Positions 22,312-48,605 of a stretch of 64,000 bases of DNA are shown piece by piece (position 1 is the first letter of the stretch; the number at the start of each line of letters is the position of its first letter). Made by a program: the position numbers and the translations under genes. The notes under the pieces are model-generated. The model ran no database searches. It worked only from the letters and a program-made list of their open reading frames with translations, and was not told where the DNA came from. This stretch comes from a virus. The stretch covers positions 36,172 to 100,171 of IMG/VR virus record IMGVR_UViG_3300028873_000014. One strand, given 5' to 3'.

Positions 22312-22460
22312 GTGTATATTGTTTTAGCTTTCATAAAATTAGTATTAAGTTCTATCCCCGATATGAATAGTTATTGAAAACACCTTACAAATATTCATCC
22401 CATTACTAAAAATAATTCAGTTTTAGTAGTTATCTTTAATTCTTAATCAAGAACATAAAA

Positions 22461-25794: not shown

Positions 25795-25813
25795 GTTATA
25801 GTTGTTTTGTTTA

Positions 25814-26696: not shown

Positions 26697-27048
26697 CTTT
26701 TTTCATATCTAGTTTAAATATCTTACTAACAGCATATCTCCAATCTATGACAGTAACAAAGAGCATAACATCTCTACTGATCAGGGAAGCAAAAGGTACT
26801 ATTATCCCTGGGTTAAAATTAGTGTGTTGAGTACACCATCCCCAAGACAAAAAGCCTATACAGAAAGCTACACAACTTGTACCAAAGACATACCAAAAGC
26901 TGATATGTTTTTTGGTCACTATATCAAACCCAAACTTTCCTAACAGCCCTATAGATACATAAGCTAAAAATGCTCCCCATTTAGACAAAAACTCTAGGAT
27001 TTCTTCGTATGTATCTTTGTGCATTTTATGATTCTGAATACTGTCCAT
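26680..27048 (-). CDS. Holin-like membrane protein
   Basis: 2-3 TM segments with a charged C-terminus. Confidence 0.55.
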   Translation of the reverse strand: MDSIQNHKMHKDTYEEILEFLSKWGAFLAYVSIGLLGKFGFDIVTKKHISFWYVFGTSCVAFCIGFLSWGWCTQHTNFNPGIIVPFASLISRDVMLFVTVIDWRYAVSKIFKLDMKKDDSDS

Positions 27049-31577: not shown

Positions 31578-31702
31578 AAATGTTTTTGCTGTTGATGATA
31601 TAAATGTAGATACTCTTTTTATATCAATACACCTTACAGATGTATGAGCGAAGGAGTTTGTTTTATCCCATTACTGATAATAACTTATTTTAACAATAAA
31701 TA

Positions 31703-31751: not shown

Positions 31752-34499
31752 TTACTTACTCTTACTGTCTTTAACTTTAACTTTATGGGCTATTTGAGTA
31801 CTCTTTAACTGTTCTTTGGTTCTATTCTCTTCAGCATTGATCTTCTGTTTAGTTAGTTGCTGATCTACTTCTTTCTGTTTAGACCCCACTACAAACTTCT
31901 GTTTCTCCAGGTCCATCTTATCTGTATGTTGCTGTTGACTCTGCTGTATTTTAGCAGTTGCTAATTGATAAGCATCTTCTCCTGCTTGTGGAGGGTTTGA
32001 TCCGGCTGCTTTTGCAGCAGCAAGTAATTCAGTTTCTCTCCATTTTTCTTCTCTGTCTTTCTCATTCTCTCCAGCTTCAAACTCTTGTTTCATCTGTAGT
32101 AATTGTTGCTGGTGTTGTTGTTCTGCCTGTGCTTCCTGTTGTTGCGCCTGTTGTTGTGCTTGTTTTTCCTGTATAACTTTCTGCTGGATAGTATCTATAG
32201 TATTATTTAAGATAGATAATACAGGAATTTGTATGGCCTTAATTTTATCAAAGATGTCTATACCGCTGCTATCGTTTACCAACATCTGTTCAATCTTCTG
32301 CATGATGAACCGTGAGTTTACAGTAGTCTTGGCTTTAACATTAAAATCTCTACCCATCAACTTAGTTCCATCTATTTCAAAGAAAGCCTTTTCGTCCCCC
32401 TGAGTGATATACTGTAACCTCAAAGAAGGATTGGTAGAATTATAGTACTGGGCAAGATCTGTACGCATCTGGTGTACTCTTGGCATAAGTTCATCACAGT
32501 GTTGCGAGAATAGATATTCTGTATGTGAATAGGAAGCAGCTTTTGCCTGGTTAATCCCTGTAGCAGTTTGTTCCTGATCAATAGGCGTTCCTGTTCTGGT
32601 AGGGTTCATACCTACAGAGTCAAGACCTGACATCTTAAACCAATCAGATATTTTCATAAGGCCAAGTAATCGTTCTGTCTGGGAAAGATCCAATCGTTGC
32701 ATATGACCTTCCCTAATAGGATTACCTTCTTTATCCCTAATAGAAGCAAGTGGAAGTATTTGACCATTCTTCATTACTGTAATTGCACTAGCTAAGTTAT
32801 TTGGTCCCCAATCTTCCCCAAGAGACTGTTTAGGGAGTGAGTTAGGATCAAGAGTAAGGATAACACCGTAGTCATTAACCATAGTGTCCTGGATAAGGTT
32901 ATTTGCCATATTATAACCTATCTGCCAAGGCTTTAGGTTATCCATCATTGACCTACTCTTAGTATTGTGGTCATTAAATATTCTCCCCTCTACAGGTAAC
33001 TTACACCCATAAATGTTGTTGTCTCCTTTGAACTGGAAAGGTAACCTCCCCGGTACAGGTGTGTTAATGCCCAGATAGATAGGTGCAAATTCTGCAGAGG
33101 TTCCTTGCCATCCAATTGCAGGAGCATTGGTTCCTATCCGCACTCCCCCCCATGTCTCATTAACCCATAGGGGGTCAAGATGTTCACCATATACCAAATT
33201 CGCTTTACTCTTTTCTTTAAAGAGTACTGTGTTATACATAGGTTTTACAGTTACCTTGTAGTCTTCTCCCACAATATCTGTAAATAAATTACCCTGATCA
33301 TCAACTTTAGTTAAGTGAAAAAATTTGCGCTCTGTTTTCCAGTAAATAGTAGAAATACGTAAAAGAAACTCACCATTGATATTAACAAGGTCTTCACCTT
33401 CATTGAGTATCTGTTTAGTAATATCCCCCCCAAAACCAACATCATCTAATACAGACATAGCCTGTCTCATACCTATACCCGGCCCTGTTCGGTTCCAGTC
33501 ATAACTTTTATGACCATCCCAATACTGATCAGGTTCTTTACCATCAAGTGCATACCCGGCAGCTCTTGCACCATGAATAGTGTTAAGCGTTAACAACTGT
33601 TCTTCACTCATCATCCATCCATACTTATCTACAGTATCGGGGACGGTAAGATAATCTATACATCCTACCCAGGCGGCATCTGATATATATCGTACAGAAG
33701 GACTCTTTCTATAAAATACTTGTGGAGGGTTCCACGTTTCTATACAGTAGTCATTATCCATCATCCGGAAGTGCCAGAACTCCCGGTCAGTAATGAGCAT
33801 GTTCCTGAAATTAACTCTCTCTAACTCAGGTATGGTAAATCGTTCATTATCTACCTGCATTTGGTGTTCTGCCCATTCCTGGTAGATATTACGATAACTC
33901 TTGTTGTAGTATTTTTGTATTTCTGGTAATGACTGAATAGTCTTAGGGTCCATCATCTGTTTCCCTTGTTCGCTATCGGGGGAAAGACCCATTTGCTGCA
34001 ACTTCATTAATTGGTTAATAGCTGCTTTTGCCTCTAGTGCTTTTTCTATATCTGCCCTTTTAGCTTCCAGCATTTCATTAACCCCTATATCACTCTTATC
34101 ATCAAATGTCATATGAGATGCTCTTTTAGCAAACTCATCAGTAAGAATGTTTATAACAGTACTTGCAAAAGGATAGTTCTTAAGTTCCATAGACTCAAGT
34201 TCTTTTCCGGCATGTTCTTCAAGAGCATCGATCATATCCGCATACTCATTATCCATTCGGATATAGTCGTTCTTCTCTATCTCCCCTATAGCAAGTTTGT
34301 AGTTCTTGAGCATCCAGTTAGCGTTTTGCCGTAACTGTTTTAGACCCTGCCAGTCTACATAAGATAGCATCTGTGCTGCCCATTCTGCATCCTTTTCTTT
34401 GTTGGGAAGGAATTGAAGTGGCTGGTAGAAGCCCGAAGAGACGCCTAACTGTTTGAGTTTCTTACCTTGCTTTAACTGATACCCGCTAATTATCTCCAT
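31752..34499 (-). CDS. Portal protein
   Basis: 915 aa with QPLQFLP, LITDREFWHF and YGCKLPVEG motifs and a Q-rich C-terminal coiled coil. Confidence 0.9.
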   Translation of the reverse strand: MEIISGYQLKQGKKLKQLGVSSGFYQPLQFLPNKEKDAEWAAQMLSYVDWQGLKQLRQNANWMLKNYKLAIGEIEKNDYIRMDNEYADMIDALEEHAGKELESMELKNYPFASTVINILTDEFAKRASHMTFDDKSDIGVNEMLEAKRADIEKALEAKAAINQLMKLQQMGLSPDSEQGKQMMDPKTIQSLPEIQKYYNKSYRNIYQEWAEHQMQVDNERFTIPELERVNFRNMLITDREFWHFRMMDNDYCIETWNPPQVFYRKSPSVRYISDAAWVGCIDYLTVPDTVDKYGWMMSEEQLLTLNTIHGARAAGYALDGKEPDQYWDGHKSYDWNRTGPGIGMRQAMSVLDDVGFGGDITKQILNEGEDLVNINGEFLLRISTIYWKTERKFFHLTKVDDQGNLFTDIVGEDYKVTVKPMYNTVLFKEKSKANLVYGEHLDPLWVNETWGGVRIGTNAPAIGWQGTSAEFAPIYLGINTPVPGRLPFQFKGDNNIYGCKLPVEGRIFNDHNTKSRSMMDNLKPWQIGYNMANNLIQDTMVNDYGVILTLDPNSLPKQSLGEDWGPNNLASAITVMKNGQILPLASIRDKEGNPIREGHMQRLDLSQTERLLGLMKISDWFKMSGLDSVGMNPTRTGTPIDQEQTATGINQAKAASYSHTEYLFSQHCDELMPRVHQMRTDLAQYYNSTNPSLRLQYITQGDEKAFFEIDGTKLMGRDFNVKAKTTVNSRFIMQKIEQMLVNDSSGIDIFDKIKAIQIPVLSILNNTIDTIQQKVIQEKQAQQQAQQQEAQAEQQHQQQLLQMKQEFEAGENEKDREEKWRETELLAAAKAAGSNPPQAGEDAYQLATAKIQQSQQQHTDKMDLEKQKFVVGSKQKEVDQQLTKQKINAEENRTKEQLKSTQIAHKVKVKDSKSK

Positions 34500-34510
34500 A
34501 GTAATTACTT

Positions 34511-35272
34511 TTATAATGCTTTATAATCTTTTAAATATAAAAAATCCGAATCTCCTCTTTTGATTCTGGCTATTAAAGTAGTTAATTTTACATTTAAATG
34601 TATTGATAATTCGGTTAATGAAACATATATCTCTTTAGTTTTTATATTTATTACCCCTTTGGCAGATCCTGTTATAGCTAAAAGATTACCGTTTTTAAAT
34701 TCTTCTTTAGCTGCACTTATCTTATTTATTCGTTTTGATATAGTCTCTTGAGATTGTACATGACCAATTCTAGTTTGGCGTAATCGCTCTTTTTGTTCTT
34801 CTGATAAAACTGGAGGGGATAATCTATATTTTTCTTTTAATGTTGCTATTCTTTTTGCTTGAGATTCAGGGCTTAATTTTTTACCCATGTGACTATCAAC
34901 TAATTTTTTTATTGTTTCTTCGGAATGAGTATACCCCTTTAACCCTTCCCCTCCATCTGTAATATTAGATAAGCACCCTGTATTATTACATATTTTTCCA
35001 TAGAGTTTTATTAACTCAATTTCTTTTTGTTTAATAAATTCATAATCATCTGACTCTAATAGAATTTCTATATCGTAATCAGTTTTGTTTACTATTCTTT
35101 TGAAGATATTATTATTACTTATATGTTTAGAAGTAGCTCTATAGTAAGTGTAATAATTGATATCGTCTTTATTTTTAGTACCTAATCCTATATAAAAAGG
35201 TTCATTTTTATCTCTTCTAATATATCTGTATATATAATGACGTCCAAAATTTACAATTGGATTATTCTGCAT
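34511..35272 (-). CDS. GIY-YIG homing endonuclease with NUMOD3 repeats
   Basis: YIYRYIR...PFYIGLG, NITDGGEG and HSEETIKK motifs. Confidence 0.85.
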   Translation of the reverse strand: MQNNPIVNFGRHYIYRYIRRDKNEPFYIGLGTKNKDDINYYTYYRATSKHISNNNIFKRIVNKTDYDIEILLESDDYEFIKQKEIELIKLYGKICNNTGCLSNITDGGEGLKGYTHSEETIKKLVDSHMGKKLSPESQAKRIATLKEKYRLSPPVLSEEQKERLRQTRIGHVQSQETISKRINKISAAKEEFKNGNLLAITGSAKGVINIKTKEIYVSLTELSIHLNVKLTTLIARIKRGDSDFLYLKDYKAL

Positions 35273-35291: not shown

Positions 35292-37487
35292 TTATCTTCT
35301 ACCAATACTTTTAAAAGGATTAACCTTTGCTCTGTTCATTGCTGAACCTGGTCTACCTACACTTTTTAAAAAAGTATTTCTATCAAAATTAGGTATTTTT
35401 TGTTTATTCGTACTTTCTTCTTTCCGTTCTATCTTTTTTCTGATACCTTTAGCTTCTTGTATTTTAGCAAATGCCATCAGCGCACAGTAGGAAGATAGCC
35501 TGTCAAAGTTTCCTTTATCCTGGTATTGTTGCATCTCTCTAAGTAACCATATGAAAGATATTCTTTCTACACCATACTTAATCTTAGTTATCTCCCCTGT
35601 ATCACTTGTTTCATGTCCTAGTTCTTCTGAAAGATAGTTAATACCATACTCTAGTAATTTTTTCCAAAGTGCTGGTGTTCTGGTATATCCATACTTTTGA
35701 AATACATTTTGTTTAACATCGAGTTCTTTATCAAATAACATCTCTGATGCCGGAACTAAATACTTTGCTCTTTTCTTAGCGATCATGTAGTTGATAAAGG
35801 ATGTTTTATTATTCTCTGAAAGAGTCCATGCATTATATAACTCTACCAGCATAGATATCTGTTCATTCGTTTCGTTAGGATCATCGTATCTACATACTAG
35901 TTCTGCTACTAGTTTACCCCCCTCGAGAAAAGTAGTGCTTGACCCTTCGGCATCTATTCTAACCACTTCTACTGGGGTAGCATAGATATATACAGATGCT
36001 AATGAATCACTGGTATCTGAACGGCCAACTTCTATAGGGTCTACAGAAGCATAGTGGTTACCCCATGCAGGATTTTCCCCAGGAAACTGATGTATAACTA
36101 CACAGCCTCTTTTATCTGAAGCTGTTCTGGATATAGGGTATGGGCAAGGTTGTCGTTTACTATCTTTATATGTTATCTTATTTTCATCAGTACGTTCAAG
36201 ATCAACATACTTAAGATAAACAGATCCTTCTTCGATCTTCTTAACTTGCCGTGTAGTATGTTTTACAGGGAAGACAGATACAGTTCTTATAGCAAAGGCT
36301 TCTTTGATATTCCTGGGTCTTTGAGAAACCTCTAGTTGAAAAGCCTCTGGTGCTTTTTCTTTCTCAATTCTTGCATACTCATTGTCCAGGTATTCAAGAG
36401 CTTCCTTAACTAAGGAATTCCCAAACTTATCTATGAATGGAGGCATGGACCATTGTTCCGGAATAAACAAACCTGTTTCTCCTTCTGTGCCATTCTCATC
36501 TAATAAGTTTGTATATACAGGATAAAAATCATTAGCTACAGGATGTAGTAAAAACTCTTTAAGAGGATTGCACTGGGATAGATCACCTACTGACCCCCCA
36601 ATGACAAAGATACCTGATGTGAGGGCACCTTCTCTCATAGCTTGTCTCATAAAACCATAAGTAGTATCCGCAGTAGGTGCTATGCCTCCTTCTTCATAAT
36701 CGAATTCATCAGTTGCCCCCGCTACACCAGATACAGGGTCTTTATCCATAGATACCCCGGTAATAGTAGCCATAGTACCTATCTGCACTTTTCTACCATC
36801 AACAGTTTTAGTTTCTACTTTCTGTTGCCAGGAAAATTCTTTATCTGGTAAGTTAGTACAACTCCATGCAGTTTCTTTATTGGTAAAGTTGTGATATTCA
36901 GCAAGAAACTTCCAACAACCATTGGTGGCATTGATGTACTTTTTATCAGAGGCAGCTATCTTACCCACAAAACCTTCTTCAAAAAGATACTTGTTATAGA
37001 TACGACACATATGAAAATATGTCCATGCTACTTGTCTCTTTTTTAGACATACCACATTTTTGTCATTCAGTTCAGCTAATATCTCATACAAGGCTATATG
37101 ATAATGCACATCACGTATCTCGGGGAACTCAAATTTCTTGGCAACTTTAAAGTATATCCTTAGGAAATTTATCCAATGATAGTAGAACCTGGGGAGATAC
37201 CATACATCACCTTTACCATTTTTGAAAATAACCCCTTTACGGCATTTCTCTTTCTCTGTATCCCAGTATTCAATAAAGTCCTGCGATCCTTCAGGTGCTT
37301 CACAGAACATTTTCTTCTTCTGGAAAGTTCTTGCTTGTTCGTTGAAAAGATATGCAGTTTCATCAAAGTTGTATAATCCAGGTTCTTTAAATAAACTCTT
37401 TACAAAGTCTCTGAAAGCAACTCTATCAGGAAATATAGTATATTCCCATACACCCGCGTTATAGGTAGGTATCTTATATCTAGCCAT
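35292..37487 (-). CDS. terL: Terminase large subunit
   Basis: LKKRQVAW (Walker A variant), DYEEGG (Walker B), GGSVGD and the YASVDP nuclease motif; upstream of portal. Confidence 0.92.
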   Translation of the reverse strand: MARYKIPTYNAGVWEYTIFPDRVAFRDFVKSLFKEPGLYNFDETAYLFNEQARTFQKKKMFCEAPEGSQDFIEYWDTEKEKCRKGVIFKNGKGDVWYLPRFYYHWINFLRIYFKVAKKFEFPEIRDVHYHIALYEILAELNDKNVVCLKKRQVAWTYFHMCRIYNKYLFEEGFVGKIAASDKKYINATNGCWKFLAEYHNFTNKETAWSCTNLPDKEFSWQQKVETKTVDGRKVQIGTMATITGVSMDKDPVSGVAGATDEFDYEEGGIAPTADTTYGFMRQAMREGALTSGIFVIGGSVGDLSQCNPLKEFLLHPVANDFYPVYTNLLDENGTEGETGLFIPEQWSMPPFIDKFGNSLVKEALEYLDNEYARIEKEKAPEAFQLEVSQRPRNIKEAFAIRTVSVFPVKHTTRQVKKIEEGSVYLKYVDLERTDENKITYKDSKRQPCPYPISRTASDKRGCVVIHQFPGENPAWGNHYASVDPIEVGRSDTSDSLASVYIYATPVEVVRIDAEGSSTTFLEGGKLVAELVCRYDDPNETNEQISMLVELYNAWTLSENNKTSFINYMIAKKRAKYLVPASEMLFDKELDVKQNVFQKYGYTRTPALWKKLLEYGINYLSEELGHETSDTGEITKIKYGVERISFIWLLREMQQYQDKGNFDRLSSYCALMAFAKIQEAKGIRKKIERKEESTNKQKIPNFDRNTFLKSVGRPGSAMNRAKVNPFKSIGRR

Positions 37488-38021: not shown

Positions 38022-39035
38022 TTACTTATTTACTTGTTTATCTATCCAACTATAGAGTAGTTTCATCCCCTCTATAAGTGGTTGTGTTGGTGACCAATTC
38101 AATCGTTGTTTGATAAGATCGTTATTACTATTCCTCCCCCTAACACCTTCAGGGCCAGGAATGTTACTAATAATTACGTTCTTCTCGGATATACCTATAA
38201 CCATTTCAGCAAGATCATTTATAGAGATCATCTCATCACTACCTATGTTAAGTATATCTGTACAATCACTTCTCATCAATCTGATTATTCCCTCTACACA
38301 TTCATCTATATAAAGAAATGAACGGGTCTGTTTACCATCTCCCCAAATGTCAATCCACACAGGTGCTTCAAAGTCTATACCATCTCCGGCAATTCTACCA
38401 TTTGTTCCTTCTATAACTTTAGCAACTTTACGACATATAGCTGCAGGTGCTTTCTCCTTACCATTATTCCAGGTAGTTTCTGGACCAAAGATATTATGAA
38501 AACGTGCTATCCTAACAGTTAATCCATAGTTACGCTCAAAAGCTTTGTAAAGTCTCTCACTAAAAATCTTCTCCCATCCATATTCACTATCGGGTGCAGC
38601 AGGGTATATAGAATCTTCTGAACACTTTGGGTTATCCGGATCAGTTTGATTATATGCAGGATAGGCACATGCAGAACTGCTATAAAATACTCTACCTACT
38701 TTTCTTTTAACTGCTTCATTAGCAACATTCAAATTGATCATAGCAGAATTATGCATTACATTAGCATCATTTTCTCCTGTGAATATATACCCGGCACCCC
38801 CCATGTCACAGGCTAATGTATAACATTCATCGATATGTATTCCTGAAAACACTTTAGCTACTTGTAACGGATCTCGTAAATCAGCCTGTATATACTCGCT
38901 ACAATACTCTTCCTGTGAAAAATATTCATTTTCCTGTTTAATATCAGCTACCCTTATATAATTACCTTCCTGTAGTAATCTTTTAGCTAAATGTGATCCT
39001 ATAAATCCTGCCCCTCCTGTTATTAATATATTCAT
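38022..39035 (-). CDS. GDP-mannose 3,5-epimerase-like NAD-dependent epimerase
   Basis: TGGAGFIG, DMGGAGYI, SSAC.YP, YGWEK, EKAPAAICRK, WGDGKQTRSF and GPEGVRGRNS, all hallmarks of GME. Confidence 0.88.
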   Translation of the reverse strand: MNILITGGAGFIGSHLAKRLLQEGNYIRVADIKQENEYFSQEEYCSEYIQADLRDPLQVAKVFSGIHIDECYTLACDMGGAGYIFTGENDANVMHNSAMINLNVANEAVKRKVGRVFYSSSACAYPAYNQTDPDNPKCSEDSIYPAAPDSEYGWEKIFSERLYKAFERNYGLTVRIARFHNIFGPETTWNNGKEKAPAAICRKVAKVIEGTNGRIAGDGIDFEAPVWIDIWGDGKQTRSFLYIDECVEGIIRLMRSDCTDILNIGSDEMISINDLAEMVIGISEKNVIISNIPGPEGVRGRNSNNDLIKQRLNWSPTQPLIEGMKLLYSWIDKQVNK

Positions 39036-39811
39036 ATAGTTTGTATTTTTTGTTCTCGTTTATTTTGTTCTCTTTCATATGCTTTTTGTCTCATCTTTTC
39101 TATAGTTTCTGGTTTTAACTTCTTTCCCCAGTTTGGATGCTTATCACCAGAGATCGCCAATGATGCAGTTCTACAGTATTCTTCAGACATCTTTTTTCCT
39201 TTATTCCACGCAGTTTGACCTTTGTGTGACTCAGATGACTTTTTTCTTGTTTCTTCAGAAACAACCTTTCCTTTATGTGTTCTACTTATACACTCTTTCT
39301 CATAGTCAGTTCTTGGTATTCCTTTCATCTGCTTACTTGTAGATTCTGCTATCTTTCGTATTGTTTCTTCTGAGTATATACCTATCTTTCCAAAATTCCA
39401 CGGTGTCTTACCAATTAATCCTTCTGATATTTTTTTCTTTGTTTCTTCACTTGGGTTGGTTAGACCATCCCCACCATCTGTCAAATTACATAATGGTCCT
39501 AGTTTCATATCCTCTCTACCTATCTTTCGTATAATATCTATTTCCATTATTAGAGAATCTTTTTCTGATAACCCATCAGCTATATGAATTATAATTGGTT
39601 GAAGTTCATCTCTAAGGATTGCCTTTATCTTATTTGATTTATGCGAATTCTTTACACTTTTATAGTGTACTTTATTTACATGATCGTGTGATCTCTTTCC
39701 TTGGCCTTTACCTACATAAAATGGTTCATGTCCTAGAACTACATTATCGTATATATACTGCCCAGGCTTTCTTGGGTCAAGATATATATAAACATAAAAC
39801 ACATTTTTCAT
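39032..39811 (-). CDS. GIY-YIG homing endonuclease with NUMOD3 repeats
   Basis: FYVYIYLDPRK...PFYVGKG, NLTDGGDG and SEETKKK/SEETRKK repeats. Confidence 0.85.
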   Translation of the reverse strand: MKNVFYVYIYLDPRKPGQYIYDNVVLGHEPFYVGKGQGKRSHDHVNKVHYKSVKNSHKSNKIKAILRDELQPIIIHIADGLSEKDSLIMEIDIIRKIGREDMKLGPLCNLTDGGDGLTNPSEETKKKISEGLIGKTPWNFGKIGIYSEETIRKIAESTSKQMKGIPRTDYEKECISRTHKGKVVSEETRKKSSESHKGQTAWNKGKKMSEEYCRTASLAISGDKHPNWGKKLKPETIEKMRQKAYEREQNKREQKIQTI

Positions 39812-39815
39812 AAGT

Positions 39816-40454
39816 TCATATATTTTCGTTTATCATAAAACTGTCCCCCCAACCATGATTGCCACTCATCACTTTCTCTCTTACAACAAATCCAAAGGTA
39901 GCAAGATATTCTTTAAGTTCTGGATATAATGCACAATTTTGATAAAGAGAAAGATCATTTACTTCTATGTATAACCATTTAACTTTGTTTAATAACTCAC
40001 CAAACCCCTTGAGACAAAGTAGTTCTGCTCCCTGGATATCGATGTTTACAAAAGGATAGTCATCAATATTTAATAAGTTATTCTGAAATAAGGTATCAAG
40101 TCGCTTGGTCTTAAGAGTAATATCCTGTACATAGTGGACCTCAGGATGTGCCTGAATATGCGTACCGAGAGCAAGAATAGAACTACTCTGTCCTTGGTTA
40201 TTAGCTATATGAAAAGTTACCTCTTCATCATCTGTATCTGTCAGACAATCATTGAAGATTAAATGGTTAGAATAGGGTTGTAAATTTCCTATCAGATTCA
40301 TTATCAATCCAGGGTCTGCTTCTACCCATACAGTTTTATTGACCCCATTAGAGTAGTAGTCAGGTGCTTCTTGTCCAACGTTAGCTCCTATATGTATTAC
40401 ACCTTTTGGTAATATGTTGTACTTCTGTATTAGTTCCTTATATGGTATAAGCAT
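39816..40454 (-). CDS. FkbM-family methyltransferase
   Basis: HIGANVGQE, NIDIQGAEL and YIEVN motifs. Confidence 0.88.
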   Translation of the reverse strand: MLIPYKELIQKYNILPKGVIHIGANVGQEAPDYYSNGVNKTVWVEADPGLIMNLIGNLQPYSNHLIFNDCLTDTDDEEVTFHIANNQGQSSSILALGTHIQAHPEVHYVQDITLKTKRLDTLFQNNLLNIDDYPFVNIDIQGAELLCLKGFGELLNKVKWLYIEVNDLSLYQNCALYPELKEYLATFGFVVREKVMSGNHGWGDSFMINENI

Positions 40455-40457
40455 TAT

Positions 40458-41018
40458 TTAATGTTTTATAAAGTAAGCACCTGTATCCATTATGTCATTC
40501 TCTGGTATGAGAACTATCTCTGAGTAGTCATAACCTTTTTCCTTTAGAAAATCCCTACACGCTTTTTCTACCTGGTAATCAGGAGATAAGTAATCATGCA
40601 TTGCAATTAACCCTCCTGATATAACTTTTGGGTAATAAGCAATCAGGTCTTTAGTAACTCCTTCATAACTATGATCTGCATCTACATATACCATAGATAA
40701 AGAACTATCAGGTATCTGGTCTGCCATTGTAGATGTATCCCCCCGGAGCATGATATACTTTTGAGGTCTGTTATCATACATTGCCATACGATCTATTACC
40801 TGCAGGACATTGGTATCATGCCACTCTTGGGTAAACCCCCCATCACCACTTTGTCCTTCTATAGTCTCCCATTTATCCACCAGATAAAGTAGTTCAGCTC
40901 CCCAATCCATAATAGTTTTAGCGAAGAGTCCTTCTGCAACGCCGAGTTCACATATTATCAATGGTAAGTTCATGCTCTTTAGCAAATCTCCTAATTGATC
41001 TCTATATCTTATTTTCAT
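40458..41018 (-). CDS. Class I SAM methyltransferase (Methyltransf_24-like)
   Basis: ELGVAEG, YVDADHSYEGV and GGLIAMHDY motifs. Confidence 0.88.
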   Translation of the reverse strand: MKIRYRDQLGDLLKSMNLPLIICELGVAEGLFAKTIMDWGAELLYLVDKWETIEGQSGDGGFTQEWHDTNVLQVIDRMAMYDNRPQKYIMLRGDTSTMADQIPDSSLSMVYVDADHSYEGVTKDLIAYYPKVISGGLIAMHDYLSPDYQVEKACRDFLKEKGYDYSEIVLIPENDIMDTGAYFIKH

Positions 41019-42397
41019 AAATGTTCTTTATACCAATGATCGCCTAAGTTAGAAAATACCGAAAATCTTGTCATACCTGTACCGATGTTACTTTCGTTAT
41101 CCCTTTGTATCACACACCCCGGGTTGAAAGCATATGTGTATAGTTGTGGCTGTAGTAATATCATAGTCCAGTCTATACCCATAGAACGGTACATGTTCTG
41201 GTCAAGAGAATCCAGGATATGAGCTAATCTGTCCTTGTTTACTATATATGCATATGTACTCCAGCAACCATAGGTACGAACTATCAGGGGGTCATCTGTT
41301 GGTTCCCAATCACAGTCTTTATCGCATCCGCACATTAACAGATCAGCATGGGTGTGTTTACCATTTTCTCTTTTGTGCCAGGTAGGTTCTTTATGGTATG
41401 TCCCCCCTAACCACATAATATCCCACTGGTGGTCAGTAAGAAATTCTTCCATGTGCCGTAGTCTATCTTGTATATCATCACAGAAGATTAGGTCATCTTC
41501 CATTACAAAAGCATGTTTTCCTTGTTCTAAAGCCTTCTTCATGATCTCTACCTGACTTTCCCAACAACCAGTAGCACCTTTGGTCCTGTTCCACATAACC
41601 GCTATCTCATCCCATCTTCTTCTTTCCCTAACCTCATCTGGTAAAAAACCTCTTTGTCTTTCTGCAGATATACCGGCCTTAACTAACTGATCTTCCATAA
41701 GTACTTTCCGGTCAGGTCTGTTATCCAGGTTCACATAACTTGTGTACGTAGTCTCGGGAGTAAGTGTTAGCAACTCCCATTTGTGAAAAGCAAAAGTTTC
41801 CAGTTTCTTCTGTTCAGGAGTGTTGTTCTCTTTAGAGAAATACTTAGCTATTTCTAAAGGGGCAAATGTCATACCTGCTCCCAGGAAATATGGACGGTAA
41901 TGTGCAGTAATTTGTGTGTCTTCATTATAAGAACCATTGTATTCTTTCCAGGGGAGATTTAACTTACTTGGTAACTCTAGTAATCTTTTACTCCGGACAG
42001 ATACAGAATTACCCACTCTAACCTCTTCACCATAGATATCGAAGATAGTATTAGGTAAAAAGGGTGCGCCACAATAGTCATAGTTTAGAAACTCATCTTT
42101 CCAAAGATCAGGTCTGATAACATATCCATCAGGATGAATTAAAAGTACAAATTCTGTATCTATATACTTGTGTAGGTCATAGAAGATAAACTTGTTCCAA
42201 TCATCTATATGTCTGAAAATAGTTCCAATGTTAACAATACTAATACCATTATCTTCTTCAAAAGTGGCTCCTACACTTGTAAGTAACTTAACCTCACCAA
42301 ATTTAATACCTACAGAACTTTTTATAAGAGCATCTACAGCACCAGTTATATCGTTAGTACTTACACAAATAAGAGTAACGTTAGGCAAACTTTTCAT
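41015..42397 (-). CDS. DUF5672-like + GT25 glycosyltransferase fusion
   Basis: N-terminal HPDGYV...YDYCGAP...VGN...RSKRL...NED; C-terminal VNLDNRPDR, GCWESQ, VMEDD and STYAYIV. Confidence 0.8.
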   Translation of the reverse strand: MKSLPNVTLICVSTNDITGAVDALIKSSVGIKFGEVKLLTSVGATFEEDNGISIVNIGTIFRHIDDWNKFIFYDLHKYIDTEFVLLIHPDGYVIRPDLWKDEFLNYDYCGAPFLPNTIFDIYGEEVRVGNSVSVRSKRLLELPSKLNLPWKEYNGSYNEDTQITAHYRPYFLGAGMTFAPLEIAKYFSKENNTPEQKKLETFAFHKWELLTLTPETTYTSYVNLDNRPDRKVLMEDQLVKAGISAERQRGFLPDEVRERRRWDEIAVMWNRTKGATGCWESQVEIMKKALEQGKHAFVMEDDLIFCDDIQDRLRHMEEFLTDHQWDIMWLGGTYHKEPTWHKRENGKHTHADLLMCGCDKDCDWEPTDDPLIVRTYGCWSTYAYIVNKDRLAHILDSLDQNMYRSMGIDWTMILLQPQLYTYAFNPGCVIQRDNESNIGTGMTRFSVFSNLGDHWYKEHL

Positions 42398-43176
42398 TAG
42401 AAATCTAGTTGGATAAATGAAGAATGTATAAAGTTAGCATTAGCTCCTGAAAATACATAATCTTTTGGAGGTATTATTATTTGTTTATTGGGGTTACGAT
42501 TGAGATAAGCTGCAACAAATCCGAAAGTAGAGTAGCACAATATCTGGTGTTCACACCCCGAGAGTGAAATAAGATCGTCTAGTTCGCTGGTGGCATTTGA
42601 GAATAATAAGTTTATATCTTTTGGTAAAAGATGAGTCAGGTTCTCTTCGCACCATTTCATATCATCACTGAAGACAATGAAATCTTCATATCCTTTATCT
42701 GCAAAGTATCTGATAGCTTTTCTATAATACTCGATAGGTATCTCAGGATGTTTATCTGTAAGTTGAAGAAAATCCCCGCGACGAAAGTGTAGTCCTACAC
42801 ATCCTTCTTTCTTCTGATAAGGTAAGTTGAACTTCTCTAAAATGTAGTCACGTTCCGAATCAAAGTATTCAAAACTCTGCCAATAACCTATAAACTTAGT
42901 ATTATCCATACGAGGGATATCCTGGTATGAAGGAGTATTGTAGGTAAATGTACCGTCCCCTTTAGGAGTAGCATGTGTAGTAAGTTCGTGGTACTCTGCA
43001 AAACCTGGTAACTCAGGCCCATTTGCCATTGAGGGGAAGTACATCTTTCTACCATCACAATGATATGCCACATCAGGTATATAGTATTCAAGGTTATTCT
43101 TTTTAGCATATGCTAACATATGAGAAATAATGTAGAATTGATTTCCTGCGCGGCCTTGAAGTGTTGTAGTGATCAT
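42397..43176 (-). CDS. GT11 alpha-1,2-fucosyltransferase-like protein
   Basis: GRAGNQ, GYWQS, HFRRGDF, VFSDD..WC and STF motifs. Confidence 0.88.
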   Translation of the reverse strand: MITTTLQGRAGNQFYIISHMLAYAKKNNLEYYIPDVAYHCDGRKMYFPSMANGPELPGFAEYHELTTHATPKGDGTFTYNTPSYQDIPRMDNTKFIGYWQSFEYFDSERDYILEKFNLPYQKKEGCVGLHFRRGDFLQLTDKHPEIPIEYYRKAIRYFADKGYEDFIVFSDDMKWCEENLTHLLPKDINLLFSNATSELDDLISLSGCEHQILCYSTFGFVAAYLNRNPNKQIIIPPKDYVFSGANANFIHSSFIQLDF

Positions 43177-43895
43177 AAGTTAGCAATTTTATCTATTATC
43201 GATTGATGAAAACCCGATGGTGTTTTATGCACATTAGTAGTATAGTGGGATGCATGACCTACCCTATGTTCATATTCTAACCCCGGCACAAAGTAATACT
43301 TATTTCCCTGTTCTAATAATCTGTAGGCTAAATAGATAGAATCACTTGTTACGGGAATAATATCCGGGTTAAACGCGTTAAGGTAAGTATTCTTGTTTAT
43401 AAAGAAGTTCATTGCGTTAAGCGCAGTAGTGAACTTATCATCTTGTATATAATCTTTAGCGTTTGCTTTATCAATAAACTTCCCCGCAAGGTGAGTAAAA
43501 TTAAAATGGGGTTTAGCAAATACTGGTTGATAGATAGTATCTTCCTCCCATCTGGGAATAGAGAAGAGAGCATCTAGGTAATCTATTCCTATGATATTAT
43601 CACTATCAAGAAGTATACACCAGTCATTAGTAGCATGAGAAATGGCTATCTGTTTATTCTTGTAACAGTCCTGGTTAGCATCATTCCTAAACAACTTGAT
43701 CTTGTTCTGTTGACTATCTGAACAAAATCCCCACCATGTCCAAAACTGTCCCCATGAACCGTCAGTACTGCAGTCATCGACTATAACTATCTCATCAACT
43801 CTTACATCATCTACTACCTGAGCAAATGATTCTAAGGTCATCTCGTAACGATTGTATGTCGGAATTACAATAGATAAAGTCCTTGTGTTATCCAT
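43173..43895 (-). CDS. GT2 glycosyltransferase
   Basis: SIVIPTYNR, IVDDCSTDGS and LLDSD motifs. Confidence 0.88.
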   Translation of the reverse strand: MDNTRTLSIVIPTYNRYEMTLESFAQVVDDVRVDEIVIVDDCSTDGSWGQFWTWWGFCSDSQQNKIKLFRNDANQDCYKNKQIAISHATNDWCILLDSDNIIGIDYLDALFSIPRWEEDTIYQPVFAKPHFNFTHLAGKFIDKANAKDYIQDDKFTTALNAMNFFINKNTYLNAFNPDIIPVTSDSIYLAYRLLEQGNKYYFVPGLEYEHRVGHASHYTTNVHKTPSGFHQSIIDKIANL

Positions 43896-44526
43896 TTGTT
43901 CTAACTTTTATGTGTGTATAGTTACTATCTTTTTCAATAGACATAATATCGTACATATTTGTAATAGTACTTAGTCCTTCTGTAAAATCTCTCCCTGCAG
44001 CAAGTACCCGTAAGTTGTGTTGATACTCATCTTCTCTCTTTGGTCTTGGGTGAGCAAAACATTCAAACCTGCCATTCTTAGTAGATGGTGTAATACCTTT
44101 CTTTATAAAAGATCGGTATAGTAAATCATCTTCTCCCCCATACCCCTTAAACAGGTTAGAAAATCCGTTCACTAGCTGGTAATGTTCTTTAGATAATATA
44201 ACTACCCCCCCAAAGAAAGTAGGGTAGGTTAACCTGTAGTCAAATTGAGATGATTCCCCCGCGATCATAGTAGGTACAGGGCAATAGGAATAGTCTACCT
44301 TCCCCACTACAGGTATGAAATCAACATCATGTAGTATTAAGTACTTATGGTCTTTAGCAAGTAATTCGTAACCAATATTAAAGAGCAATCCTTTGTTCCA
44401 GGGAGAATTACCAATATCTTCTATAACAGCTATGTGCATACCGGGGTAATGTTTCTGTACATGGAGTAAGAAACAAGATAAATGTGTAGGGCGATTCCTA
44501 TAAGCTACTAATACTAGTGGGGACAT
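43888..44526 (-). CDS. GT7 beta-1,4-galactosyltransferase-like protein
   Basis: AYRNR, WNKGLLFNIG, HDVD, FGGV and NGFSNLFKGYGGEDD motifs. Confidence 0.9.
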   Translation of the reverse strand: MSPLVLVAYRNRPTHLSCFLLHVQKHYPGMHIAVIEDIGNSPWNKGLLFNIGYELLAKDHKYLILHDVDFIPVVGKVDYSYCPVPTMIAGESSQFDYRLTYPTFFGGVVILSKEHYQLVNGFSNLFKGYGGEDDLLYRSFIKKGITPSTKNGRFECFAHPRPKREDEYQHNLRVLAAGRDFTEGLSTITNMYDIMSIEKDSNYTHIKVRTNG

Positions 44527-45187
44527 GTTTTTGAGATAACCAGTTTAAGTAATGTTGTTTAGTAGTAGCAATCTTTGGGTCAGCATGGTCAAAATAATAC
44601 TTCTCTTCTTCTGTAAGATTAGTCCAGTCACTATACCAGTCAAGATGAGTAATAGGGTAATCAGCTAGTCTTATAGCATTATACTGAAAAGGTAATTCCG
44701 GTTTAACTATACAGAAGGTAGTATCTACAGGAGCAGAAAAAATGTTGTGTCTGGGGTGAGGTATCTTAGTTAACCAGTATTTACGCTCAATAGGTTCTAT
44801 GATAGGTTTAAGAATAGGGTTAGTAATATTACTAAACCTTATGGCAAGACCTACTTTGTTCTCTCTGGTGTACTTACCTAGTTCTATCATCTCTTTTATA
44901 AAACCTGCAGGTGTATCAGGGTCAAGAGCAATATCACTATCTGTAACTACTACCCAGGGAGAAGAAAAGTTTTTTATGAAACTATTCTCCCATATACCTT
45001 TATGACCAATGTTATTAAAATAGTGCACCATCTTTTCATTCTCCCTATACCATTCTAGTAATGGGGGGTACGTACTACCAAGATCGATTATGTGAATACC
45101 TTCTCCATACCCTAACTCTACTAACTTTTTACAGAGAGCTTTTGTACAAGTTAATCGATCACGATTGAGAATCAGAATAGGTATCAT
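44498..45187 (-). CDS. GT2-like (GT-A) glycosyltransferase
   Basis: ILNRDR, IIDLGSTYPPLL, VTDSD and APVDTTF motifs. Confidence 0.75.
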   Translation of the reverse strand: MIPILILNRDRLTCTKALCKKLVELGYGEGIHIIDLGSTYPPLLEWYRENEKMVHYFNNIGHKGIWENSFIKNFSSPWVVVTDSDIALDPDTPAGFIKEMIELGKYTRENKVGLAIRFSNITNPILKPIIEPIERKYWLTKIPHPRHNIFSAPVDTTFCIVKPELPFQYNAIRLADYPITHLDWYSDWTNLTEEEKYYFDHADPKIATTKQHYLNWLSQKHVPTSISSL

Positions 45188-45190
45188 AAA

Positions 45191-45763
45191 TTAGTTATGT
45201 ATAGTTAATACCCCGTTTATCTTTTTAATATTCTTAAGCAATCCTGATCGTAAACAATCCTGAATGAATAACCAATCACTACAATATTCAGTAGGATAAT
45301 TAATACCAATTTCTTTAGCTATAGAGGTCTTTATACAGAAATTCCCCCAGTCTAGTTTTGACCATTCTAACTTACTATCCAGTACCTGACAAGGCCCCAC
45401 GAGATGGTTAATGCTGTTCCAGAGTACTAAGTCGGGTTCTTCTACTAATACTCTTTGTATATATTCTACTGCCTGGGATAAAAAATAATCCTGAATACTT
45501 GTCTGAAGGATATAGTCGGTAGTGCAATCTTCTATAGCCTTTTGTCTATTATGTGCCCCCCAACAGTTAGTATTAACCGGAGATTCCATATACCTAATAT
45601 TCTGAAGTCCTAGAAACTCATCTCCCATATCTCTTTCAGAAGGACCATTATGAAATACTATAGCTTCAAAGTCTTGACAAGTTTGGTTAAGCATTGAAGG
45701 TACAAAAATACATTCTTGCCATTTCTCATTAAATGCTGTAGCAACTATAGTTAGTGTTTTCAT
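45191..45763 (-). CDS. GT2-like (GT-A) glycosyltransferase, divergent DxD
   Basis: SMLNQT..DFE...HNG, WGAHNRQ, TSIQDY and SDWLFI motifs. Confidence 0.65.
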   Translation of the reverse strand: MKTLTIVATAFNEKWQECIFVPSMLNQTCQDFEAIVFHNGPSERDMGDEFLGLQNIRYMESPVNTNCWGAHNRQKAIEDCTTDYILQTSIQDYFLSQAVEYIQRVLVEEPDLVLWNSINHLVGPCQVLDSKLEWSKLDWGNFCIKTSIAKEIGINYPTEYCSDWLFIQDCLRSGLLKNIKKINGVLTIHN

Positions 45764-46311
45764 TCTTCTTCCTTATCTTCTTTACTATTAACATATGTAG
45801 GTAATTGATCATACCTTACCTTAACATTTCCGCGAACCTTAGACTGTTCTTCTTTAAGTATCTCACCAACTTTGTTAAGTATCTCTACATACTCAAGACC
45901 CTGTTTCATAAATCTGTCAATAGCCATTGCGTTACTATCTTTACCTTCTGTTATCTCGGTAATATCTAAATAGTTGGCTATCTTTTCTACCATCTTCTTC
46001 TGTCCTCTCCACATACGAAGTGTAGGAGTTTCATACATGATACGGCATTTCTCTATAGTTTCCAGGATATGCAGATCTTCAGGATAGAACTCAGGTTTGA
46101 GATCAAGTAGTATTACCTCTTCCCTTTTATCTTCCGGAAGTTGTACATATGGGTTCATAGTACTATCCGGACAAGTCATGTAGAAGATATATTTGTATAT
46201 CTCTAAGTAATGCCCCGGAAAGTCATCCATAACTCTTTTCAACCAAGGTATTGCATAACAATGTACCGAGGGCTTAACAGTCTTTTCAGAAACATCAAAT
46301 AGGTTAATCAT
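45760..46311 (-). CDS. Conserved crAss-like protein usually found near terL (function unknown)
   Basis: YIFYMTCP...NP, YETPT and EQSKVRG motifs recalled from crAss-like genomes. Confidence 0.55.
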   Translation of the reverse strand: MINLFDVSEKTVKPSVHCYAIPWLKRVMDDFPGHYLEIYKYIFYMTCPDSTMNPYVQLPEDKREEVILLDLKPEFYPEDLHILETIEKCRIMYETPTLRMWRGQKKMVEKIANYLDITEITEGKDSNAMAIDRFMKQGLEYVEILNKVGEILKEEQSKVRGNVKVRYDQLPTYVNSKEDKEEE

Positions 46312-46312
46312 A

Positions 46313-47410
46313 CTAGTTCATTAAACTTTCTAAAACCTGCATACGTACTTTATTCCACTTGGGTAATGAGTATTCTTCTCTTATCCAACTACCCATCTGC
46401 ATACCTCTTTCTTTTGCCCAATCCTTTTCCTTAATAGACTTCCTGATATACTTTAACCAATCATCCTGTGTCTCTACAAAACATACCCCCTCACAAGGAC
46501 GCAAATCACTGTAAGGGCTAACATTACTACAGATAGCGGGGATATCTCTGGTAGCAAGTTCCAGTAGTTTCAACTCACTTATATAGGAGTGCCAACTACT
46601 ATCTGTAAGAGGGACAAGCCCTACATCGGCGTGATCATAATGATGCATATATTCCCATAGAGGAAGAGTAGGTAAAATCTTGTAACTACCTGTATGTGAG
46701 AAGATCAGTTTCATATGATCGTATGGCCCGGTAATGTTCTCTAAGTTAAAATTACTATTATTCTTATCCCTATCTTCTTTAGTATGGAATTTCTTAGCAA
46801 CTGATTTTTCATACCCCGCCAGGATGAACTGTGCGTTGTTCCTGATATACGGATCAGAGCCTATCTTCTTAAACTTACCCTCTAGTAGTTTTACATCAGC
46901 TAAGTGACCTACCCCACCAGCATAAAGGAAAGACATCTTATCAGTAACTATCTTTTCTCCTGGTGCAAATTGACCATCCCCGAAAGGTAGTGCATTTGGT
47001 ATCACTACTGTATTCTTATTAAGCTCTCTTACCTTCTCCTGTAACCGCATAGAAGTACAGATAACTAAGTTGGCTATCTTTATATGTTCTTCAGTAAGTT
47101 TATCATTACCACTACCATTCCATTGTGGGGCGTAGGGATTACCGGGGGGAAGTATCCAATAGTCGTCTATATCTACTACTATTTTCATACCCTGTGCCTG
47201 CAGTTGTTTTAATACTTCTACAGGAGTGGCAATACATTTGTTATAGACAAGTATATCACAGTCGATAAAATGTTCATCCTGCGCTATGAATAACATTTCT
47301 ATAGAATGCTTTGAACTCCATGATGGGTCTTTACCCATGTAGCTAAAAGGGAGAATGATCCTATGATATTCACATCCGCTTTTGTCTCTAACAACTAACT
47401 GTATCTTCAT
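46313..47410 (-). CDS. GT-B (GT4-like) glycosyltransferase
   Basis: GCEYHRI, VVDIDDYW, VVIPNA, DVGLVPL and SELKLLE...IPAICS motifs. Confidence 0.82.
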   Translation of the reverse strand: MKIQLVVRDKSGCEYHRIILPFSYMGKDPSWSSKHSIEMLFIAQDEHFIDCDILVYNKCIATPVEVLKQLQAQGMKIVVDIDDYWILPPGNPYAPQWNGSGNDKLTEEHIKIANLVICTSMRLQEKVRELNKNTVVIPNALPFGDGQFAPGEKIVTDKMSFLYAGGVGHLADVKLLEGKFKKIGSDPYIRNNAQFILAGYEKSVAKKFHTKEDRDKNNSNFNLENITGPYDHMKLIFSHTGSYKILPTLPLWEYMHHYDHADVGLVPLTDSSWHSYISELKLLELATRDIPAICSNVSPYSDLRPCEGVCFVETQDDWLKYIRKSIKEKDWAKERGMQMGSWIREEYSLPKWNKVRMQVLESLMN

Positions 47411-47778
47411 GGTTGTTCTATAAAGTATTTATCGAGTGAGTTATATAATTTCAAACATTCTTTAGCATCTTCAAAGAAATAATAACTAGTATCGGCAACA
47501 CCGTTAAAATCTATAGATACTACATACTTATCTTCAGGGTTATCGTAAAACATTTCCACACTAGTGATATCACTTCTCTTTCTTCTCCAACGGTAATTAC
47601 TTTTCTTTTCTTTCCATTGTATATCTTCCTCTTCTTTGGTGGAATAGTCCGCTACTACTTTGTAGAAGATAAAACGCTCAGATAGAATCAGATATGCTTC
47701 TTTACGAACAATATCCTTTCTTGTAGATAATTCACAAAGAGGAGTATCTATTCTAATATCCAAGGTTGTGTCTGTCAT
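47407..47778 (-). CDS. Hypothetical protein
   Basis: 123 aa, coupled in operon. Confidence 0.6.
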   Translation of the reverse strand: MTDTTLDIRIDTPLCELSTRKDIVRKEAYLILSERFIFYKVVADYSTKEEEDIQWKEKKSNYRWRRKRSDITSVEMFYDNPEDKYVVSIDFNGVADTSYYFFEDAKECLKLYNSLDKYFIEQP

Positions 47779-48605
47779 CAGTGCTTCTTAATAAGTGCTC
47801 TTTTCTTTGGGTCAGATATGTAGTCTATGAGTTTTACCACATCCCCCCGCAAGTAAGGTAGTTCTATAACTTCAATACTTTCTACAACAGGTTCGTTATT
47901 CTCATCTAGGAATGCTATTGGATAATCATACTTATCCTTTCCTGCTTCTACGAATTTTACATGATTGATCCGTAACTTCCCCGGTAGCAAAAGTGGGTTA
48001 TGTTTAAGAATACAATACATATAGATAGATAACTGCAGGGCATAATGATTAAACTGACAGTCTTCAAGATGAGTAAAAGGTTGTAACATCTTTTTCTTAG
48101 TACCTTCCCAGTTGGTAAATCCTTCTCTCTTAATCTCCTTACTGGTCTTATGATCTTCAATAGTCACTATCCCTTTCTCTACCTTAACTATATCACTCTG
48201 TCCGGTAATAGCGGGTCCGGCAAGATATACTAAATGCTCTGGGTAAACCCCGTCTCGTAACCTTTGATCAGGTGCTAACTTAACTCCATCTTCTACGATG
48301 GGAGCAAATACAGTAAGTGTGGTATCTTCCAGTAACTCCTTCTCCTTTTTATTATGATACCAATGACCAAGATCAGTAGCACGTTTACTCTCCTTCTCCC
48401 AGGCCTGTAGAATATCTTCAGGACTAACCTTATACCATTTGTTAGGATAACGAGAACTAGGTACTCTTACAGAAGCCTTTGCTGCTTTCTCTATCTTATT
48501 AAAAGGTTCACAGAAAGCATGTACCAGGGTCGTAACTCCTAACCATTCTCTGTTATCGGAGATGATGGACTCATACCTGTGGTTTTCTGCTATAAATTTT
48601 ACCAT
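47778..48605 (-). CDS. PD-(D/E)XK nuclease (Cas4/RecB-like, crAss conserved)
   Basis: GVTT, LGHWYH, GQSD...IEDHKTS and HYALQLSIY motifs. Confidence 0.85.
   Translation of the reverse strand: MVKFIAENHRYESIISDNREWLGVTTLVHAFCEPFNKIEKAAKASVRVPSSRYPNKWYKVSPEDILQAWEKESKRATDLGHWYHNKKEKELLEDTTLTVFAPIVEDGVKLAPDQRLRDGVYPEHLVYLAGPAITGQSDIVKVEKGIVTIEDHKTSKEIKREGFTNWEGTKKKMLQPFTHLEDCQFNHYALQLSIYMYCILKHNPLLLPGKLRINHVKFVEAGKDKYDYPIAFLDENNEPVVESIEVIELPYLRGDVVKLIDYISDPKKRALIKKH

Follow-up and report, generated by a model that had tools for sequence, protein, structure and literature searches.

What glycan does a phage assemble with a packed block of glycosyltransferase (GT) genes placed just before its packaging genes, and which molecule receives it? 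This question is raised by positions 38022-47410 of a 64,000-nucleotide stretch of viral DNA (the window), which corresponds to bases 36172-100171 of a linear, 100,171-bp viral contig of IMG/VR (IMGVR_UViG_3300028873_000014; 76% complete). A sequence-only reading of the window had described the block as a complete glycan cassette in a late operon, whose soluble products would act on S/T-rich virion proteins. Virion glycosylation has been demonstrated in mycobacteriophages and giant viruses, and it affects immune recognition and surface properties. Our analysis gives good support to the view that the block (hereafter the island) is a phage-resident, soluble, and self-contained cytoplasmic glycan-assembly pathway, and we tentatively favor the fibre proteins of the virion as its target.

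The Glycan Island and Its Enzymes

The island consists of 12 open reading frames (ORFs) on the minus strand, whose junctions overlap or leave gaps of ≤4 bp (Table 1). The seven GTs, two methyltransferases, and GDP-mannose 3,5-epimerase (GME) claimed for it were all confirmed in place by Pfam, PDB, PHROG, or fold matches, as was their tight, co-oriented packing upstream of the genes for the large terminase (terL), portal, and major capsid protein (MCP), which follow in this order; a 113-aa ORF and a 173-bp gap lie between GME and terL. However, the cassette is not all-glycan: the sequence-only reading missed two ORFs, a homing endonuclease gene (39032-39811), which is a selfish insert outside the glycan pathway, and a core gene that does not encode a glycan enzyme (45760-46311). 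No 19-residue hydropathy mean in any island ORF exceeds 1.46, consistent with the claimed lack of transmembrane anchors. In addition, no ORF with at least three hydrophobic 19-residue segments was found in the phage genome under study (G000; 103 ORFs) or in a complete, 134,570-bp relative whose terL is 66% identical (G001; 148 ORFs). Therefore neither appears to encode a priming transferase, flippase, transporter, polymerase, ligase, or Gtr-type protein, as had been claimed for the flippase, polymerase, and priming enzyme, and self-contained export of the glycan is unlikely.

The closest PDB match of GME is the Arabidopsis enzyme (Table 1), with 6bwl ("Pal") at 5e-26 and then UDP-glucuronate decarboxylase at 2e-24 as runners-up. 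The SSAC, YGxEK (YxxxK), and GxEKAP positions align identically with 2c59, and the catalytic residues, which we take from the Arabidopsis enzyme to be a Ser/Tyr/Lys triad and a Cys and Lys acid/base pair, are intact. The predicted products are GDP-L-galactose and GDP-L-gulose. The GT7 protein matched PDB beta4GalT1 at E 7e-25 over residues 5-208 (full-length), and its HDVD and GGEDD motifs are invariant. Its two Pfam domains, together with the DVD metal motif and GGEDD, place it in this family as a predicted beta-1,4-galactosyltransferase. Its 55 homologues include many on contigs of 123-140 kb.

The GT-B gene opens the island. Its AF2 model (pLDDT 84.7) gave GT4 enzymes, a chlorovirus GT, and Gtf3/GtfC as top Foldseek matches; no cassette-bearing relative lacks the gene, which always comes immediately behind the exonuclease-like gene, and its identity in eight relatives is 43-55%. 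For the 190-aa GT-A, a profile of nine orthologues matched 6p61 in PDB at 3.3e-8, and also SpsA and TagF. The same kind of PDB search with the family of the 229-aa GT-A found nothing, and hhalign detected no relation between the two GT-A orthologue profiles; the D83-S84-D85 (DSD) motif of the 229-aa protein is invariant, its orthologue in G001 matches Pfam GT2 at 7.6e-5, and its neighbours in the protein atlas are mostly viral, including FkbM+GT2 fusions of giant viruses. Homologues of DUF5672 were found within sugar clusters of cyanophages and huge phages. The 183-aa core protein had no Pfam match, its model had no fold match in PDB (Foldseek, E <= 0.001), and tblastn against phages gave no match. 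Its atlas clusters are viral-only, and the nearest named one is terS at 0.75; on this similarity, which is a weak lead, the protein may be the small terminase.

Table 1. Features of the window, from the exonuclease-like gene that borders the island to the candidate acceptor genes (aa, amino acids).
Feature	Position	Strand	Supporting match	Remark
Exonuclease-like gene	47778..48605	-	phrog_298 at 3.9e-15	left border; next to GT-B gene or 183-aa gene in all relatives
GT-B (GT4-like) glycosyltransferase, 365 aa	46313..47410	-	phrog_7162 at 1.5e-55	first gene of island
183-aa helical protein, no family	45760..46311	-		conserved core gene of the lineage; not a glycan enzyme
GT-A (GT2-like), 190 aa	45191..45763	-	Pfam GT2 at 2e-3	conserved island core
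GT-A (GT2-like), 229 aa	44498..45187	-	atlas 0.98, TM 0.84-0.89 to GT2 clusters	
GT7, beta-1,4-galactosyltransferase-like, 212 aa	43888..44526	-	Pfam Glyco_transf_7N + 7C	minimal catalytic domain
GT2, 240 aa	43173..43895	-	Pfam PF00535 at 3.8e-18	orthologues in L022 and L049
GT11 (alpha-1,2-fucosyltransferase family), 259 aa	42397..43176	-	Pfam PF01531 at 1.1e-22	
DUF5672+GT25 two-domain protein, 460 aa	41015..42397	-	PF18922 at 2.7e-8, PF01755 at 2.2e-7	
S-adenosylmethionine (SAM) methyltransferase (Methyltransf_24, TylF-like), 186 aa	40458..41018	-	PF13578 at 2.1e-11, PF05711 at 6e-4	
FkbM-family methyltransferase, 212 aa	39816..40454	-	PF05050 at 4.9e-13, TIGR01444 at 1.7e-14	
GIY-YIG/NUMOD3 homing endonuclease, 259 aa	39032..39811	-	NUMOD3 at 4.4e-23, LEM-3 GIY-YIG at 4.6e-10	
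GME, 337 aa	38022..39035	-	PDB 2c59 (Arabidopsis GME), E 1.5e-92, residues 2-337	
terL, large terminase	35292..37487	-	phrog_6681 at 1.3e-63	right border of island; conserved
Portal	31752-34499	-	PHROGs	
MCP	28645-30282	-	PHROGs	
Candidate acceptors: fibre-module proteins of 398, 195, 182, and 322 aa	12064..15408	-		19-27% S+T; no signal peptide

In the pathway that we propose, GME would convert host GDP-mannose to GDP-L-galactose, the conserved GT-B and GT-A enzymes would lay down a core, GT7, GT2, GT11, and DUF5672+GT25 would extend it, and the two SAM methyltransferases would O-methylate the product. L-galactose would most likely be added by GT11, the putative user of GDP-L-galactose, because GT11 enzymes use the closely related GDP-L-fucose. 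The acceptor would be a phage-made protein, most plausibly the S/T-rich proteins of the fibre module, which would receive the glycan while still in the cytoplasm, ahead of or in the course of assembly, so that virions would carry a lineage-variable sugar coat.

The Phage and the Cargo Slot before terL

Near-identical DNA is present in 23 peat metagenome runs, and a GT7 protein identical to the window copy is also encoded on contigs of up to 134,132 bp; the phage appears to come from peat and to have a genome of about 134 kb. Every gene from 50164 down to base 1 of the window lies on the minus strand. Because its terL is only 23-25% identical to those of Crassvirales, and beyond the tail genes come ORFs of 2808 and 4349 aa, we class the phage from its sequence as a distant crAss-like phage; its host probably belongs to the Bacteroidota. 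A lipobox lipoprotein (LSGC) adjoins two small proteins with two hydrophobic segments each at 25210-27048, inside the structural block, and this is likely a lysis (spanin/holin) cluster.

Relatives were gathered by alignment searches with GT7, GT-B, and terL, and 80 terL relatives were taken in. The island is restricted to a sub-clade of these, in which its site is constant and its size ranges from 4 GTs to 15 genes. G001 is colinear with the phage genome and carries a 15-gene island at the same site, which shares with the window the GT-B gene, the 183-aa gene, both small GT-A genes, GT7, GT11, DUF5672, and GME, and which adds a UDP-sugar dehydrogenase, an NAD-synthase-like enzyme, a GT47-like gene, and a second GT11, as well as a 1124-aa fusion of short-chain dehydrogenase/reductase, C-methyltransferase, and FkbM domains. 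The dehydrogenase and the adjacent NAD-synthase-like enzyme, which possibly form a uronamide, and the 1124-aa fusion lie within L012:11809-17816. The smallest islands hold four GTs, namely GT-B, GT-A, a GT92/GT2_4 enzyme, and a GT-A paralogue, and others add GT2, GT11, GT34, or methyltransferases in differing combinations. In relatives with terL identity of at least ~50%, GT-B is always located between the exonuclease-like gene and the 183-aa gene, and the other glycan genes between the 183-aa gene and terL.

In relatives with terL 45-48% identical, the exonuclease-like gene, the 183-aa gene, a slot, and terL are found in this order, and the slot has no GT homologue; it contains PhoH (L055:9325-9987, L051:5526-6221), ThyX (L050:6748-7464), or small unknown ORFs. 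The order of exonuclease-like gene (275), 183-aa gene, and terL recurs in ~30 cassette-less loci, and in the complete cassette-less genome G003 BLAST found no match to any island gene genome-wide. Immediately ahead of the terminase gene these genomes have a hotspot for cargo, the slot that follows the 183-aa gene, and the island is an old accessory feature of one sub-clade in that slot, with a fixed start and a variable remainder. Its core genes are 43-66% identical across relatives, equal to MCP and portal. A GT7 pattern scan of 185,579 prokaryote genomes gave nothing, and the corresponding GT-B scan gave only a 29-residue stretch in Mucilaginibacter that we do not deem meaningful; against phages, neither megablast of the block (50,697 phage records) nor tblastn of GT7 gave a match. 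On the core-gene identities, the prokaryote scans, and the mostly viral atlas neighbours we regard the island as virus-resident and old.

Homing endonucleases of the GIY-YIG/NUMOD3 type also occur at other island positions, in G001 (L012:8106-8843) and at L022:8483-9247, and a further one lies between terL and portal in the window (34511-35272). The terL ORFs of two relatives (L028 and L030) are ~1100 aa long, which suggests inserted elements. In another relative, a 177-aa ORF between GT-B and the 183-aa gene (L022:6563-7096) is 41% identical to MCP residues 335-458, and represents a duplicated part of MCP within the island of this genome. At 33.5-86 kb, G001 carries a Gad1 anti-Gabija protein, RecA, and a TnpB/IS605 element.

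The Acceptor of the Glycan

The first transferase is conserved and the later ones are variable, indicating a conserved acceptor. The sequence-only reading had pointed to S/T-rich virion proteins, and had proposed a survey of their co-occurrence with the cassette. We compared the length-weighted S+T content of the fibre module, bounded by two conserved anchor genes, in nine genomes. It was 0.252, 0.214, 0.237, and 0.222 with large or alternative cassettes, 0.199 and 0.204 with minimal cassettes, and 0.186, 0.175, and 0.172 with no cassette (that is, 0.21-0.25, 0.20, and 0.17-0.19), and S+T of terL, portal, and MCP was 0.10-0.13 throughout. The module holds proteins with 23-34% S+T, and its 398-, 182-, and 322-aa proteins have S/T-rich orthologues in cassette-bearing genomes. 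The genes at 12064-13032, 13043-13591, and 14212-15408 encode candidate acceptors. The leading reading is that virion (fibre) proteins are the target, and we hold it as a serious possibility that falls somewhat short of a probability.

Several points weigh against fibre glycosylation. The ranking of fibre S+T with cassette size is perfect across the nine genomes, but it is suggestive only, because these genomes fall in nested clades and phylogeny confounds the trend. The two S/T-richest proteins of the phage, encoded in the tail module at 16124-17173 and 17173-19545, have Sec-type signal peptides followed by Gln, and one of them has Big_2/Ig-like repeats; only one of the two has any match in G001, and that match spans just 66 residues. 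With Sec signals and poor conservation they are poor candidates for a cytoplasmic, clade-conserved acceptor. The fibre trend runs in the direction that the earlier proposal predicted, and these two proteins weaken it. TSG[TSAG] is enriched in the fibre proteins of the phage (e.g., 4 observed versus 0.2 expected), but it was rejected as a sequon, not being over-represented in the G001 orthologues. MCP and the 423-aa protein have no S/T-rich tail tied to the presence of the cassette, no recognised protein-O-glycosyltransferase family was found among the island enzymes, and the fold match of the GT-B model does not discriminate. The location upstream of terL, and with it the late-operon argument of the sequence-only reading, carries less weight than it seemed to: the slot holds PhoH or ThyX in relatives, and position does not by itself imply a structural role. 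GT2, GT4, GT11, and GT25 are standard families of lipid-linked O-antigen and lipooligosaccharide (LOS) assembly, whose transferases are normally peripheral, lack transmembrane helices, and act on lipid-linked acceptors. For this reason the absence of such helices does not prove a cytoplasmic substrate, and of the earlier claim of soluble enzymes on cytoplasmic substrates it is the soluble, self-contained nature of the set that stands.

These last points bring in the host envelope. Transferases without transmembrane helices could remodel undecaprenyl-linked intermediates of the host (O-antigen, capsule, or the general O-glycan of Bacteroidota) on the inner side of the membrane, and the host enzymes of priming, flipping, and ligation would then display the altered glycan, which could block superinfection or the sticking of progeny to debris; in that case the two S/T-rich phage proteins with Sec signals could acquire glycans in the periplasm. 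With FkbM/TylF methyltransferases, the GT families of the island are typical of O-antigen/LOS loci, and NCBIfam near-matches among the island proteins were EpsD, TuaG, WcaA, and PglI. The use of the site as a cargo slot for auxiliary genes, the variation of gene content between close relatives, as in surface-glycan loci, and the two Sec signals fit this explanation as well, and capsule modification has been proposed for GTs of gut phages (PMC8008677). However, an envelope route would rest wholly on host machinery, since G000 and G001 appear to have no priming transferase, flippase, ABC transporter, ligase, GtrA/B/C, or other multi-transmembrane protein. No integrase was found among 21 Pfam families in 50 non-structural ORFs of G001, which argues against a long-lived lysogen that would benefit. 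The prokaryote scans described above count against recent capture from a host, the first transferase is the most conserved although the hosts presumably differ, and known seroconversion takes 1-3 genes versus 10-15 in the island. Taken together, we consider the envelope unlikely as the target, though a real alternative.

The glycan might instead go to another cytoplasmic acceptor, that is, packaged cargo, a non-virion protein of phage or host, or a methylated oligosaccharide that is produced in the infected cell and stays free or lipid-free. The sequence itself does not single out an acceptor, the best fold matches of GT-B include enzymes of small molecules and cytoplasmic polysaccharides (GlgM, BshA, MshA, and the methylmannose polysaccharide mannosyltransferase), and the GT-B homologues of phage phi92 sit among DNA-polymerase and endolysin genes rather than structural genes; but such an acceptor leaves the fibre S+T trend unexplained, and a 10-15 gene phage pathway of this kind has no known precedent, so that we judge it unlikely. 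A further rival idea is that the island glycosylates phage DNA before packaging and shields it from host nucleases. The island does lie between an exonuclease-like gene and the terminase gene, diverse phage GTs modify DNA (bioRxiv 10.1101/2023.12.21.572611), sugars are added to phage DNA late, before packaging (PMC13326640), the T4 alpha-glucosyltransferase stands at rank 40 of the GT-B fold matches, and G001 encodes an Nmad5 domain protein (G001:C1:54140-54694). According to both sources, phage DNA glycosylation builds on 5-hydroxymethylcytosine (5hmC), 5-hydroxymethyluracil, or 5-hydroxycytosine (5hoC) from thymidylate-synthase homologues, or alternatively on 5hmC from a C5-methylase and a TET-type dioxygenase. 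Thymidylate synthase (PF00303) is absent in G000 and in four cassette-bearing relatives, three of them complete (G001, G005, G006, and G007), ThyX (PF02511) and C5-methylase (PF00145) in G000 and G001, the only genomes searched, and the ParB-like partner (PF02195) in G000, G001, G005, and G006, with a control that matched 11 of 14 genomes; for TET/JBP (PF12851), G000 and G001 gave no match, which is uninformative as its control also matched nothing. A Pfam sweep of the same 50 ORFs of G001 found RecA, RNase H, TnpB, Gad1, homing endonucleases, and one Nmad5, with no modification enzymes, and Nmad5 is surrounded by genes for primase, annealing protein, and endonuclease or by genes of no known function, none of them for a recognised modification enzyme. 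Because the base-hydroxylating enzymes that the known routes need and ParB were not found in the genomes searched, DNA glycosylation by these routes is unlikely. Furthermore, a branched, methylated, L-galactose-containing glycan that needs seven transferases has no precedent on DNA, and overall we regard DNA as a very improbable acceptor.

Comparison with Known Glycosylation Systems

The nearest functional analogues of the island would be the virion glycosylation of mycobacteriophages and the glycan machineries of chloroviruses and mimiviruses. Soluble, phage-encoded GTs have been shown or proposed to decorate the structural proteins of mycobacteriophages themselves, as we propose here, and methyltransferases are reportedly present in some mycobacteriophages with virion glycosylation. 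We liken the two at the functional level. The island comprises more genes than the mycobacteriophage system and also supplies a nucleotide sugar, and the phage, if a podovirus as its crAss-like kinship suggests, would be expected to lack a tail tube. According to PMC12619734, which cites Freeman et al. (2023), the O-glycans of mycobacteriophage virions are on the C-termini of capsid and tail-tube subunits. In our relatives, the MCP C-termini (YGG, FGS, GSL, YSL) vary regardless of the cassette, and cassette-less relatives end in GGSF, showing no C-terminal tag of the mycobacteriophage type.

Chlorovirus PBCV-1 (A064R, A111/114R, A075L) resembles the island in having a cytoplasmic set of multiple GTs with methyltransferases and nucleotide-sugar enzymes (PMC7826918, PMC9614988). 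Chlorovirus glycans have a conserved core with variable decoration (PMC7826918), and this pattern matches that of gene content in the island. GT47-like and FkbM+GT2 architectures are shared by the phage relatives and giant viruses. The chlorovirus system differs in its eukaryotic host, in N-linked glycans on MCP, and in scattered genes versus one operon, and we liken the two only at the level of the system.

Among phages, gp163 and gp164 of Escherichia phage phi92 (NC_023693) are 31% identical to the island GT-B (E 1e-41 to 1e-43, 97% cover). The gp163-gp166 cluster (L013) has four GTs, two GT-B paralogues and then GT-A genes, like the island, but it adjoins DNA polymerase and endolysin genes, not terL, and is without sugar-nucleotide or methyltransferase genes. 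Many rV5/phi92-like phages carry two GT-B paralogues in a four-GT cluster, and we found no reported function for the phi92 cluster in the literature. Clusters for phage DNA glycosylation, such as T4 alpha/beta-GT, arabinosyl-5hoC in RB69 and DLP3 (PMC13326640), and methyltransferase+TET+GT (bioRxiv 10.1101/2023.12.21.572611), also place GTs near packaging genes, possibly as late genes; they differ by a base-hydroxylating enzyme and a ParB-like partner that were not found in the phage. Seroconverting phages (GtrABC; PMC11990801) share with the island phage-borne glycan-modifying genes in a variable repertoire, but use membrane proteins and 1-3 genes and are temperate, whereas the island has no membrane proteins and no integrase was seen among the ORFs scanned. 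As the sequence-only reading had supposed, our search of the literature on glycosyltransferases and glycosylation in crAss-like phages or Crassvirales found no such island described.

Transcription of the Island

The junctions from 50164 to portal are tight, and the island is packed into this run, which reaches terL and portal. The sole Bacteroidota-type -7 box upstream of the block on the island strand is at 50.2 kb. Contigs of a peat metatranscriptome that are identical to the window cover MCP, the 423-aa gene, and patches of the island, whose uncovered parts carry no meaning. A DNA run (X1) aligned in tiny pieces only. Some DNA may be present in the metatranscriptome library, and contigs do not allow genes to be ranked, so the contig cover is a weak hint of transcription of the island, without bearing on its timing.

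Scans for sigma-70 promoters gave fewer matches than shuffled sequences, and those for terminators no more than shuffles, so both kinds of candidate were rejected. The motif TGTAAGGTG is located in three intergenic gaps of the phage, with none between 50.2 kb and portal; it is not conserved in G001 and was not used to define transcription units. AGTAATGGGAT followed by TGTAAGGTG was seen as a pair at 22381-22407 and 31630-31675 of the window (minus strand), in the gaps before the 438-aa and 423-aa genes, where G001 has a different shared motif, GTGTATCTTAGTCTT. These paired intergenic motifs are probably phage-specific late promoters.

Implications

It is possible, though we put it forward with reserve, that a sub-clade as a whole, crAss-like phages with genomes of ~125-135 kb from peat and elsewhere, coats its own fibres with a lineage-variable, methylated heteroglycan that contains L-galactose. 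The glycan would be built by a modular island, with a conserved core and exchangeable extension genes, that is inserted on both sides of a core gene associated with packaging. No earlier case would then be known in which phages of Gram-negative hosts (probably Bacteroidota) encode a multi-sugar pathway for glycosylating their own virions. From the pairing of GME with GT11, L-galactose is to be expected, which is rare in bacterial systems. Even with the host envelope as the target, a lytic phage with a 10-15 gene de novo glycan pathway and no membrane components would be unusual. If the clade does glycosylate its virions, phage particles with sugar coats would be much more common than they now appear, the island would be a bacterial-virus counterpart of the glycan machinery of chloroviruses and mimiviruses, and the clade would offer a natural series, running from 4 to 15 genes at a single locus, in which gene content could be related to the structure of the glycan.

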